Assembly (NCBI GenBank): GCA_044892505.1
Contig: CM097883.1
Coordinates: 10,788,001 to 10,852,000, forward strand
Source of the DNA: Schmidtea nova
Lineage: Eukaryota
Direction: 5' to 3'
DNA: 64,000 bases
The position numbers were made by a program, and so were the translations under genes. Below, piece after piece: positions 4,963 through 39,435 of this stretch (positions within the stretch are counted from its first letter, which is position 1; the number at the start of each line of letters is the position of its first letter). The notes under the pieces are model-generated. The model was not told where the DNA came from, did no database searches, and saw only the letters and a program-made list of their open reading frames with translations.

Positions 4963-5549
4963 TTAAATCGTTGAAAATTCCTTCGGGGGGGGGGGGGACA
5001 CTTCATTCAATAATTTTTTTTCGGATAATTTATGTAGCGCCTCTATCTGGTTTTGTAATTTCTGGGCGAAGAGTTTTCGCTGACGACGCCTTTTTTGTCC
5101 GATTCTCTTACGCTTTTGATGCGTACTGACTATTGGGTTATTGTCACCAATTGCCGGTTGCGTTTCTGCGCTCGCTACAGTAAGACCCTCGACGTCCGTA
5201 CCAATTGATGTTTCCACTTTCTTCTCGGCAATCCATCCTTGGTATGTTATTGGCCGGATTTGGTCTTTCAGCTCTCGTTCGATGTACTAGGCTGTCACGG
5301 AGTGAAGGCATTTGCGAAGCTCGATCTTGGTGGCTTTCCACTCCATCCGATAATCATCTGCCGTCCGCTGTGCTCGCTCAATTTTTGCTATCTGCTCTTT
5401 CATTCGAGCGGGAGCGAACCAACTCTTGCGCAGGTACGCAATTTGAGCTTCGGTTTTAGTCAGGTTCTCTTTGAGGAGATGCAACTCTTTTTCTTGGGCT
5501 CTCCGAATTCGCCACATTTTTCTATCTCCTGGGTGGCTTCTAAATTCAT
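4963..5549 (-). pseudogene. Family A coiled-coil protein with Arg-rich tail, copy A1
   Basis: ORFs 5287-5517 and 4963-5217 are in one frame separated by one TAG (VTA*YIERELKDQIRPITYQGW). An upstream ATG at 5549 is one A short in a homopolymer. Motifs WFAPARMK, ELRKCL, RIGQKRRRQRKLFAQKL are shared with the other copies. Confidence 0.75.
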
Positions 5550-5721
5550 TTCTACAAATTGGTTAAATTAAAAAAAATTTTTTTTTTTTATCTTTCTTAT
5601 GTTAATACGCTATTTAAATTTAATAACATTCTATGAAGACTTGAAATGAAAACACAACACAAAAATATAACAAGCCATGATTTTTACTAAAACATTTATT
5701 ATTGTTCAATTGCAGCAATCG

Positions 5722-6198
5722 TTATCGTCGAAATAAAATGTGTAACTCTTGATTAATAGGCGTTCTGCGAAGCCTGGCCCAAGAAAACGGGGGTTGTCTA
5801 TCCTCGCACTCCCTTCCGAATGATTTTCGCGGGATAAATGCATGAAGCCCCAATTTGCGCAATTCTTTTCGGGGAATGTGTCCCCAGTAGATCAGTTGGT
5901 CGGACCTTCTGTTCACGTCATTTACTCGGATTAGCAATTGACCGAATTTTTAAGAATAATTTTTATTGGAGATCGGCCACCCTGGGCCTCCTCTGTACAT
6001 TATACGATCTCCGTTTTCCCAAATGGAGAATGTGCACCTCCGATTGAATCCCTGGCGCCATTTGTACATTTGCGCACTTATGGTACGCAGGATTTGAGGC
6101 GGAAGCTCCTTGAGTATGCCCTTCGTTTCCCTCTCCTTGAGTGTATCTACCGAATTCCTGAGTTCGGTTAGTATATGATGTATACTGGTTGCAGACAT
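5722..6198 (-). pseudogene. Family B unknown protein, copy B1
   Basis: ORFs 5950-6198 and 5722-5937 are in frame across one TAA and align with 37966-38490 (P..IL......M..WR, C.F..W, YRG...WPI, IYWG.IP....LG). Confidence 0.75.
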
Positions 6199-6637
6199 CT
6201 GTGCTATTTCGAAATCATCAAATGGTTATAAATATAATTTAATTAATGCAAAAATTTGTTTTACAATTTAAGTTATCTTCGCCGCGATATACCACGGTCG
6301 GCATATATCGTATTCATACTGCACAATATACAGTGATCAGGATAACAACAAAAATTAATGCGATCAATTCTAACGTCCTGCGCCATTTACAGCGATCAGG
6401 CTAAAGATTTTATTATAAATTTCCGCGCTATTTACATCGATCGGTTTACGTGTTTAATTATAAATTTTTATTTAGACTTCCGTCGCGGTCTGACGCGATT
6501 GGAATTCGACTACTGTATGCGCAGGTATGTGGCTTAGTTTTTCAGTTCACTTAAATTTTATTCCTACTCGATGAATGTTAAAAACGAATGAAAATCCGAA
6601 CTTTGGCCCTTGATGAAATTTACCAGTTAGATCGATT

Positions 6638-6835
6638 TTACTTGAAATTTTTACGCTTTTCACTCATCCTACTCGATCCCTTGGGCTCAAATCTAACCTG
6701 TCGGAATTCATTGATTTCTTGAATAACTTCATTGATTAGGTTGTCTACTTCTTTGTAGATTTTATCGGGTAGACTCGTAACTGTTTCTCGGTGAGTTGTA
6801 ACTCTTCTCTCTGTAGGGTGAGGGTTATAAACCAT
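6638..6835 (-). CDS. Small hypothetical protein (65 aa)
   Basis: ATG-initiated ORF co-oriented with its neighbours in the small-gene cluster; charged helical composition; no recognised motif. Confidence 0.35.
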   Translation of the reverse strand: MVYNPHPTERRVTTHRETVTSLPDKIYKEVDNLINEVIQEINEFRQVRFEPKGSSRMSEKRKNFK

Positions 6836-6940
6836 AGGAGTGTTGATATTGCGAGCTTTCTCATTTCTATCTTTACATAGGGGTCAATACAGCTTGACAC
6901 TTATTTTACATCATCTATTTACAATTAGTTTCCACTCTAG

Positions 6941-36867: not shown

Positions 36868-37344
36868 ATGGAAGAAATAAAGTCATACATAAACACCGAT
36901 CAAAAACGACAGATTCAAAGGAGAATACAGCTTCTCGGAGGAAAAATCAGTCGGCAAAACTTAGAATTAGACGGGTTAAAGCGTACCTGGTTTTCTCCGG
37001 ACCGGATGAAGGAAGTCTTACAGAGCAGAGACAGGGAAGAACAAGTCCGAGAGACCTCGGCAGTTAAAGCTGAGTTGAACCGATGTTTGAGGGCTACGAT
37101 GTCCGATTTCATAGAAAAACACCTAAAGGGACAAATTCTAGAATGTACTTTCGAGAGATGGGTGCTCACTCGTCACACCCATACCGAAACCCAGACGGAA
37201 CAACTTCAGCCCACCACTAACAATAAAGAGGACACGGAAGTATCAGCTATTCTGGTAGCCTCAACGCCAACTACTCATAAGAAGCTAAATCGATTGGGAG
37301 CCAAGCGACGACGAGAACACAGAGCCTTCTATCGACAGTGGTGA
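36868..37344 (+). CDS. Family A coiled-coil protein, copy A2 (158 aa)
   Basis: WFSPDRMK, ELNRCL, FIEKHLKGQI..TFERWV, NRLGAKRRREHRAF; TATAAAA at ~36785. Confidence 0.75.
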   Translation: MEEIKSYINTDQKRQIQRRIQLLGGKISRQNLELDGLKRTWFSPDRMKEVLQSRDREEQVRETSAVKAELNRCLRATMSDFIEKHLKGQILECTFERWVLTRHTHTETQTEQLQPTTNNKEDTEVSAILVASTPTTHKKLNRLGAKRRREHRAFYRQW

Positions 37345-37965
37345 ACCCGTATTCTTAATTGGGGAATAGTAGTCACTTCGACTACTCACCTGCCCGGTTG
37401 AGCTACAACGCTTAGTGCAGTACGAACATGAGGCGCAATTAGGGGCAAATCATGGGCACAAGCGGGAGAATGTTTTTATGTTAACTAGGTGACCCTAATC
37501 TTTTCCACCAAGCACCTGTGTTCTGATATCTACAACCAACACACCAACAAACGATAACTTTAAAAACAAAACAAACTAAATTTACTTGTAAAATTGTATT
37601 GTTGAAAAACAGTACATTGATGTTCTAAAACAAGAGTGGCGATTTTCGAGAGAGCTAGGAGAGGCACGATGGGAAAGAGTTTTTCTGTTTTGGAATAACA
37701 ATGTTTTCGCTATCAACATAAATTAATCACCAACCGAATTTTGGCAATGATCTTCACCTAAAATCCCACAGTAATAGGTAGATATAAGCAGACACGAGGG
37801 CAACGTAGGAAACATGTCACAACGATCAACAGTTTTCTCACATTTTCCGTTCAGGGCTTAGGGAAAAGGCAAATAATATACACTACACGATGAGAGATGA
37901 TGTTTACCGTAATTAGTCACTGTTCTAAACTGCTAAATTATTATAAATTCACAATCATTCTAGAA

Positions 37966-38490
37966 ATGTCGAAGCAGAGATTAGCCTACAGACAGCGAAG
38001 AACCGCCAAAACCGAGAACCAGTGGGGCTGGAAACATGGCTCGCTAAAACGAAATCGAGTCCGAATCAATCCATTAAAGCCGGCCCCGTTTGAAATCTTA
38101 CAACAGCTACACCAAAAAATGTGGGCATGGAGACGAGAGTTGGAGACAGCATGTCCCTTTACAGTATGGGACCACCCACGTCATCACGTGTGGTACCGAG
38201 GCTGTGCCAACTGGCCGATCATCCCAGAGGAAGAATTCGAACCATGGCACGCCGAGTGGTTCATCCTAATGTCAGACAAACAAGGATTTCCGAATTGTGT
38301 TATCTACTGGGGATACATTCCGGCATCTACTTTCAAAGAATTGGGCTTCATCTTCAACACCGCAATCCGACCCCTTCGGGAAGCGGAGAAGACACGTTTC
38401 CAACAAGCCTTATCTGCTACAACGGATATCAACACAAACCTACAGATGCGGTCAATATTCTCCTATCGAGGGAAGATGGCCGAAGAATGA
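37966..38490 (+). CDS. Family B unknown protein, copy B2 (174 aa, intact)
   Basis: Open frame from the ATG at 37966; Trp-rich; aligns with B1; AATAAA at ~38561. Confidence 0.75.
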   Translation: MSKQRLAYRQRRTAKTENQWGWKHGSLKRNRVRINPLKPAPFEILQQLHQKMWAWRRELETACPFTVWDHPRHHVWYRGCANWPIIPEEEFEPWHAEWFILMSDKQGFPNCVIYWGYIPASTFKELGFIFNTAIRPLREAEKTRFQQALSATTDINTNLQMRSIFSYRGKMAEE

Positions 38491-38851
38491 CTGTTAATGA
38501 ATCCGTTAACAAAGTTGGGTCCACTTAATGCATTCAATCTGTTACTACTGATTTCGATTTAATAAATGTTTAGCAAAAAATTGAGCGCTTCATTTTGTTC
38601 TTTAGTACAGTTGCAATATAGTCAGAGACGAGCTTAATTAATATCTATTGTTGTAAAATGTGTTCACTTTAATACTTATCGTCATCCGGAAATTTCTTTT
38701 ACCAGGGATAAAATAGCTAAATATCTTTGTGAAATTCCAATAATTAAACACATTAGTATACATTTCATTCATTAATAATAATAGTCGTTTAAATAAAATA
38801 ACGTTGTTGTTAGGATCACCAGTGAATTAAACATTATAACATTCAGATAGC

Positions 38852-39435
38852 ATGCCGATTTCCGAAACCTCCAAGAGAGTAATGAGTCAAATCTAGGACA
38901 GGAAGTTGAGAGATCATCGGCAAATCAAACGGCTCACGGTCGCAAATGACGAATTGAAAGCGAGGTGGTATTCACCAGAACAAATGAAGAGACAATCACA
39001 AAAACTGGAGCGTGTGCAGGAAGCCCTAGCCGAAACCAAAACGGAGCTCGATGCAGTTCAGAGAGAATTGCGTAACTGCCTGAGCTCTGTAACTAAAAGT
39101 TACATAGATTTGGAGTTAAGAGCGTTGATCAGACCGATCACCGCCCAACGATGGGTCCAGAGTTCCTACCAAGATGTCGCTTGCGGGACGGAGAACACGA
39201 TGACACTGGCTCCGACCTTATGACGGAGGACTCTCACACACCACACCCGAACCAACCTAAACCAAGGGTTCTCGCACCCGTGCCAAGTCAACCTCCACGA
39301 AGAAACCGATTAGGATCGCGGCAACGTCGTTGTCGTCGGGAATTCGCCAAACAACTGAACATGCAAATCGACAAACTAACTTCGTTGACCGAATCGGAAT
39401 TACTAAATGAAATTAGTTTAGAGTTCGTGCTGTAG
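38852..39435 (+). pseudogene. Family A protein, copy A3
   Basis: ATG 38852 is in frame with 38906-39223 across one TAG, then a frameshift leads to the tail RNRLGSRQRRCRREFAKQLNMQIDKL..LLNEIS, which matches the A1 tail. Confidence 0.75.

Follow-up and report, generated by a model that had tools for sequence, protein, structure and literature searches.

What kind of sequence are the short coiled-coil open reading frames (ORFs) that recur between positions 4963 and 39435 of a 64,000-nucleotide stretch of Schmidtea nova DNA (GCA_044892505.1, contig CM097883.1, positions 10,788,001 to 10,852,000 of the forward strand; hereafter the window)? A preliminary description of the same DNA had taken them for five paralogous proteins, family A, of a gag-like or viral core type. 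The present analysis shows that the repeated unit is a cassette, in which a gene B, where present, is followed by A and then by a structured 3' element, and that most copies have decayed. Gene B and the conserved element, which the preliminary description had missed, are the most informative parts of the cassette. The coiled-coil family alone would be an orphan repeat-borne protein of modest interest; its pairing with the element matters more.

The family itself was examined in A1 (4963..5550, minus strand), A2 (36868..37344), A3 (38852..39435) and A4 (21065..21478), the last three on the plus strand, which are 28-45% identical to each other. When A1, A2, the N-terminal part of A3, and A4 were compared, all six pairs scored above 1000 of 1000 heptad-block shuffles, and only 3 of 1000 plain shuffles attained the score of the weakest pair, A2-A4. 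As a control, two coiled-coil ORFs from elsewhere in the window that are unrelated to A gave scores reached by 17-812 of 1000 shuffles; a third control, which contained a partial codon, was set aside. A1-A4 are a true family, which is refuted neither by these shuffled coiled-coil controls nor by a hidden Markov model (HMM) search, in which no match to a known gag or ORF1 was found. The claim of five paralogues holds for these four but not for A5 (9693..10225, plus strand), a coiled-coil ORF that is a distant member at best: the score of its N-terminal part against A1-A4 is not significant (164-654 of 1000 shuffles reach it), nor is its match to the A1-A4 profile (107 of 500 and 25 of 500 shuffles; hhalign E=0.099). 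A5 is counted with the family only because it has a linked 3' element in the same relative position. To speak of five proteins is also an overstatement, since stops or frame changes interrupt A1, A3, and A5. In A1, a TAG lies in frame at 5287-5289 and the start is uncertain; A3 has a TAG at 38894-38896 and changes frame near 39200-39270; A5 changes frame near 10034-10085 and carries its basic patch in the second frame. Only A2 (158 aa) and A4 (137 aa) are uninterrupted. A2 was probably shortened by an internal deletion, hence the overlap of its last codons with the adjoining 3' element.

All of the motifs quoted in the preliminary description were located, and the W/Y-[FY]-x-P-x-x-MK motif is borne out in A1-A4, where the P, M, and K are invariant. 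What had been called a Cys heptad is in fact one invariant Cys at a heptad d position, with one or two Cys per segment. The Arg-rich tail exists in A1-A4 as a basic patch, in which 10, 8, 8, and 7 of 15 residues are R or K in A1, A2, A3, and A4, respectively, but it is not C-terminal in A1, A3, and A4; the letters HRAF quoted for A2 belong in part to the 3' element because of the overlap. A long coiled coil is supported by the AlphaFold helices of A2 and by the heptad of hydrophobic a positions. The A2 model (mean pLDDT 77, pTM 0.35) has a helix at residues 2-41, a kink at the WFSP motif, and a second helix at 44-110, followed by a low-confidence linker at 109-133 and a helix at 136-157 that bears the basic patch. 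With such features, A may form oligomers, bind nucleic acid, and be imported into the nucleus. Membership among gag-like or viral core proteins was not borne out: no capsid-like globular domain, no CCHC knuckle, and, in two Pfam scans covering 186 ORF pieces in total, no gag or ORF1 match was found. By the features tested, family A is not gag or ORF1.

Immediately upstream of A1 and A3 there is another orphan gene, B, and A2 is preceded by a degraded B; none was detected ahead of A4 or A5. B3 (37966..38490, plus strand) is an uninterrupted, Trp-rich ORF of 174 aa and of no known family, to which B1 (5722..6198, minus strand; in-frame TAA at 5950-5952) is matched by tblastn with E=3e-10. B2 (36112..36629, plus strand) changes frame near 36240-36276 and has a TAA at 36318-36320; its tblastn match is weak (E=0.026), and the further evidence for it is an alignment and the corresponding position upstream of A2. 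The model of B is uninformative (pLDDT 43; best Z 2.6 in a fold search). Upstream of B2, the stretch 34890-36100 reaches a GC content of 51% and holds broken frames only, with no Pfam match; it may be a further decayed part of the A2 cassette. In A1, A2, A5, B1, B3, and an ORF at 7999 (minus strand), the start codon comes directly after YAG or after YAG plus AA, which could be a splice or trans-splice acceptor, or a mere start context.

The 3' element was revealed by DNA self-comparison as a sequence common to the regions 3' of A1, A2, and A3, namely e1 (4562-4749, minus strand), e2 (37322..37501, plus strand), and e3 (39725-39909, plus strand). An HMM of these three found e4 (21685..21864, plus strand; E=6.5e-8), and a covariance model of e1-e4 then found, out of sample, the divergent subtype e5 (10480..10696, plus strand) at 38.2 bits and E=4.4e-7, the next best of 19 listed matches being at 10 bits; a sequence-only search gave e5 an E of 0.094. 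Thus, the non-coding element of about 180 nt is present downstream of all five A-type ORFs, A5 included, starting 210-293 nt past the A stop in four of them and overlapping the last codons in A2. The sixth copy, e6 (29503..29687, plus strand), stands alone with no A gene upstream, is without the 5' part of the element, and is 83% identical to e5; minus-strand orphan ORFs rich in Asn and Lys at 28388-29431, with a short second copy at 32113-32179 and no Pfam match, lie head to head with it. The DNA match between e1 and e3 (4757-4498 against 39717-39972; 67% over 261 nt) extends about 65 nt beyond the element through an AC-rich tail common to both, which runs out to 4498 in e1 and to 39972 in e3, and GC then drops to the host level (from 47% to 23% beyond e3).

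Each full copy of the element folds as two stem-loops, the first with a 3-nt CAY bulge opposite one base and the second with an 8-nt bulge on the 5' side and a single G on the 3' side. In the alignment of e1-e4, 93 of 100 cells are paired and 9 of 25 pairs are changed on both sides; the pairing score is reached by none of 500 shuffles, and slid partners pair at only 33-43%. The second hairpin holds in e5 with other letters and is decayed at two pairs in e6, and the unpaired bases of the element are kept invariant. The element therefore keeps its two-hairpin fold by compensatory changes. Since G-U pairs exceed A-C pairs by 8 to 2, the folded strand is likelier to be a single strand in the sense of the genes. 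Copies of the element are 51-69% identical to each other, as compared with 21-40% at third codon positions of the genes.

Known RNA families gave no counterpart. No Rfam 15 match at E<=1 falls on any copy within positions 1-44000, searches with three copies singly gave best E values of 6.7, 9.4, and none, and the element pattern has no match in bacterial and archaeal genomes. The cores of the hammerhead, twister, pistol, and hairpin ribozymes are absent from all six copies. A pseudoknot between the GGG of the second-hairpin loop and a terminal CCCTA is possible in e1-e4, but its pairs never vary and e5 and e6 are without it, and hence it is not claimed. The hexamer CCCTA(G/A) occurs singly in four of the six copies, the AC-rich tract is degenerate with no tandem repeat, and AACA is found within the AC-rich tail, also in four of six.

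The extents of the copies on the 5' side are nested: e6 stands alone and is cut inside the element, A4 and A5 have A only, and A1, A2, and A3 have B and A, the A2 and A3 cassettes being arranged head to tail. All copies thus have the 3' element in common and differ in 5' reach. The ORFs are 45-55% GC and the spacers 22-35%. An AATAAA is located from -10 to +80 of the stop in five of the seven A and B genes (P of about 1e-5 against shuffles), which points to intronless genes read by host polymerase II. In all ten A and B pairs, pS (0.71-0.91) exceeds pN (0.41-0.52) and synonymous sites are saturated; dS is beyond estimate in seven pairs, and dN/dS is 0.26-0.34 in the other three. A and B were formerly under constraint at the protein level. 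A folded stretch of 180 nt that has persisted while synonymous sites became saturated, and that stands at the end of each unit, is a candidate for a new ribozyme or RNA signal.

The surrounding DNA is AT-rich eukaryotic sequence (22-46% GC per kb across the window) filled with mobile-element remnants, which include BEL/Pao gag and pol pieces, the pol fragments being assigned to this type by reading, together with a piggyBac-type and a hAT fragment; a mobile-element origin of family A fits this context. Also present are pieces of ubiquitin, HSP90, and HECT, a TRAF-type MATH ORF, and a fragment of a phenuivirus-type nucleocapsid. Upstream of B1 and in the same orientation lie two coiled-coil ORFs and the MATH ORF (6997..8531, minus strand). 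The MATH ORF at 8109-8531 matches Pfam TRAF-mep_MATH with E=5.5e-17 and TRAF3 with E=1e-19, and the coiled-coil ORFs 3' of it, at 6997-7569 and 7610-7999, are unrelated to family A by shuffle and profile tests and may be a single frameshifted gene. It is possible that these three ORFs are further cargo of the cassette.

Several other features lie close to the cassettes. A decayed BEL/Pao element at 21903-25767 (minus strand) has an HSP90 fragment and ubiquitin in frame ahead of its gag, and its truncated end, a pol fragment, abuts e4. A frameshifted fragment of the phenuivirus-type nucleocapsid occupies 40446-41049 (plus strand; Pfam Tenui_N, E=2.6e-8), 0.5 kb past the A3 cassette, and broken ORFs at 18700-20230 (plus strand) resemble the C-terminal part of a phenuivirus L protein, a likeness that Pfam and PDB searches did not confirm. 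The piggyBac-type transposase fragment (DDE_Tnp_1_7) is at 25749-26618 (plus strand), a weak hAT dimerisation match at 1143-1439 (minus strand), and a separate dispersed AT-rich repeat of 71-74% identity at 644-1052, 33659-34037, and 9262-9377. From 43230 to 64000, at least five tandem copies of a unit of about 4.15 kb, about 99.8% identical (4092-4095 of 4101 bases), join a BEL/Pao pol fragment, a ubiquitin-headed ORF, and a HECT fragment; this array is either a very recent amplification or an assembly artefact. Directly ahead of it is a 750-nt direct duplication of 98.7% identity (41257-42006 and 42499-43247).

Homologue searches were blank for A and B. None of 1738 candidates of a word-indexed protein search matched the A profile, and none was found by HMMER at E<=0.001 among 1.84 billion representatives, a search made with A alone. 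The A profile had no match at E<=1 among PDB sequences, and none of 17 pattern matches in bacterial and archaeal genomes was confirmed. For B, none of 16 candidates of the protein search held, and there was no match in PDB or in phages. In the ESM Atlas, the best value was 0.77 for A2, with no usable match for B3; fold searches with the A model had 0 of 84 and 0 of 3 listed matches at E<=0.001, long helices being poor queries. Overall, A, B, and the element have no relative in the libraries searched, which seem to cover this genome poorly and among which there was no eukaryotic genome or repeat library. None of ten ORFs of the window is present in the protein collection, and even for the MATH ORF, a clear TRAF relative, none of 11 candidates reached E<=1e-10 among proteins of similar length. 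Therefore, the blank searches are weak evidence of novelty. In a literature search that assumed a flatworm host, no paper describing the cassette was found, as far as the accessible portions of the papers go.

Since the copies have a common 3' end and differ at the 5' side, and their neighbours are BEL/Pao, piggyBac-type, and hAT remnants, the cassette is best read as the 3' end of a selfish retroelement-like family, a reading to which we would give about an even chance. One possible scheme is as follows. Several long-diverged subfamilies would have accumulated in a region rich in transposon and virus fragments, where most copies decayed later. B and A would be genes without introns, each having a separate poly(A) signal and being transcribed by RNA polymerase II of the host. 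The A protein would use its kinked coiled coil to assemble and its basic helix to hold RNA, acting like an ORF1 or nucleocapsid protein or like a Rev-type protein. The fold may sit in a longer read-through transcript as a cis signal at the 3' end, where it would mark the RNA to be captured, processed, or primed by a reverse transcriptase whose gene lies elsewhere and which works in trans. Copying from the 3' end would then lead to 3'-coterminal copies of variable length.

Several points weigh against this scheme. No reverse transcriptase, integrase, pair of long terminal repeats (LTRs), poly(A) tail, or target-site duplication is tied to any cassette in the window, and full-length RNA would be harder to produce with poly(A) signals lying inside the unit ahead of the element. 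The AATAAA interval was picked after inspection of the data, and two of the seven stretches carry AATAAA on the opposite strand too. The variable 5' extent can also come from deletions and nested insertions. As for the fold, the pairing test used a structure drawn from the same four copies, copies folded singly give only modest z-scores (-0.4 to -2.2), and the element has neither a hammerhead core nor an Rfam match. The dN/dS values were taken from protein-guided alignments, which lower pN.

Some of the same observations can be explained in other ways. The intronless, GC-richer ORFs (45-55%) with short AT-rich spacers, the genes with their own poly(A) signals, the position of the element beyond the signal of A, and the TRAF-type MATH gene co-oriented upstream of B1 would also suit the remains of a large DNA virus or Polinton-like element that had integrated here. 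A and B would then belong to a multigene family, and the element would be either a separate small RNA gene or a single-strand origin or enhancer repeated beside each A. We regard this as unlikely: the 186 ORF pieces include no match to a DNA polymerase, capsid, ATPase, or integrase, positions 1-44000 hold no long terminal inverted repeats, and the cassettes lie on both strands amid unrelated remnants, with similarity that ends just past the element. An origin from the 3' ends, or subgenomic RNAs, of an endogenised RNA virus, with B and A as its last genes, A as a nucleocapsid-like protein, and the element as a 3' replication signal, appears quite improbable. In its favour, the nucleocapsid fragment past the A3 cassette shows that RNA-virus sequence is present in the region, the saturation of dS and the independent decay of the copies are as expected of separate captures, and a viral 3' untranslated region could well contain such a 3' fold with its possible pseudoknot. 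However, cytoplasmic RNA viruses need no AATAAA, and this nuclear signal after five of seven stops would be superfluous for them; moreover, no viral relative was found by sequence or fold, and no RNA-dependent RNA polymerase is linked to the cassettes.

Slightly less credible still is an origin from a giant LTR retrotransposon like Burro of planarians, of which accessory genes and a leader or LTR RNA would have remained as solo or partial copies. The MATH and long coiled-coil ORFs co-oriented upstream of B1 recall the Burro cargo, as given in the available part of PMC6431247, and AACA in the AC-rich tail of four of six copies would fit as well, but none of the elements is followed by gag-pol, and the window yielded no paired LTRs; the MATH and coiled-coil ORFs accompany one of five cassettes only, with a lower GC content than B and A. 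Least probable of all is a host gene family with a linked non-coding RNA, evolving by birth and death. Past purifying selection, polymerase II signals, and clustering within 35 kb are what such a family would show, whereas three of five A and two of three B copies are broken, introns are absent, GC differs from the flanks, the copies lie amid mobile remnants, and one copy of the element stands alone.

If the retroelement-like reading is extended further, the element may be a candidate catalytic or priming RNA of a class outside Rfam, and with A and B it would make up a new group of mobile cassettes in animals, whose fold is recognised by an Arg-rich coiled-coil protein and whose reverse transcriptase is supplied in trans by another element; we consider this extension unlikely. 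The covariance model is in any case a handle on a repeat family that is invisible to protein searches.

Among known systems, LINE-1 ORF1p and the Gag of retroviruses and LTR elements resemble family A in combining a coiled coil with a basic segment, as for an RNA-packaging protein. In contrast to them, A has no RRM, capsid domain, or CCHC knuckle, its model is helix-linker-helix only, and its length is 137-192 aa; it is a stand-alone gene with its own poly(A) signal and no adjacent pol, and no pol or ORF2 follows on the same strand, where all five ORFs are followed by the non-coding element. The delta antigen and the pairs of Rev or Rex with their response elements, which are leads only, have a helix-proline kink-helix oligomer domain, an Arg-rich helix, and a structured RNA beside the gene; the cassette has no sequence match to them, and no hepatitis delta virus (HDV) ribozyme was matched in Rfam. 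A rod-like circular RNA agent of the deltavirus or Obelisk kind was rejected, as all five cassettes fold in a branched manner, with 13-33 hairpins and 57-67% of bases paired. A Helitron ends with CTRR just after a short hairpin. CTAG or CTAA is present in four of six copies of the element, but the similarity of e1 and e3 goes on for about 65 nt and more than 40 nt separate this motif from the nearest conserved hairpin, which lies upstream, and a Helitron end was therefore rejected too.

Burro-like elements, in the part of PMC6431247 that was available, carry MATH/TRAF and Smc-type motifs and an upstream accessory MATH ORF. The likeness lies in the MATH/TRAF and long coiled-coil cargo beside one cassette and in the AT-rich host; the difference is that none of the cassettes in the window is associated with a gag-pol polyprotein or a pair of LTRs, as would also be the case for solo or partial copies, and that A, B, and the element are absent from the description of Burro in that portion of the paper.

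In its presumed working, the cassette comes closest to the 3' units of Penelope-like elements, Terminons among them, for which 5' truncation, tandem arrays, coiled-coil ORFs, and a terminal hammerhead RNA fold are described in the accessible parts of PMC6431247 and PMC8557442. It is not assigned to them because the hammerhead test failed and no Penelope-type reverse transcriptase is present in the window. The fold is not a hammerhead, since the core is absent from six of six copies on both strands and no ribozyme of Rfam is matched; right after it, where reverse-complement telomeric repeats would be expected, no tandem repeat was found, but a degenerate AC-rich tract and one CCCTA(G/A) hexamer in four of six copies; and the 186 ORF pieces include no Penelope-clade reverse transcriptase, which could lie outside the window. 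On the other side, both systems, as far as those parts of the two papers describe Terminons, have co-oriented coiled-coil ORFs, a generic feature of low weight, a conserved 3'-terminal RNA fold, and a C/A-rich stretch after it. Both also have a common 3' end with variable 5' reach and head-to-tail copies, which here is a comparison of six copies whose truncation could also be due to deletions or insertions. If the parallel is true, the capping of such elements is not restricted to the hammerhead.

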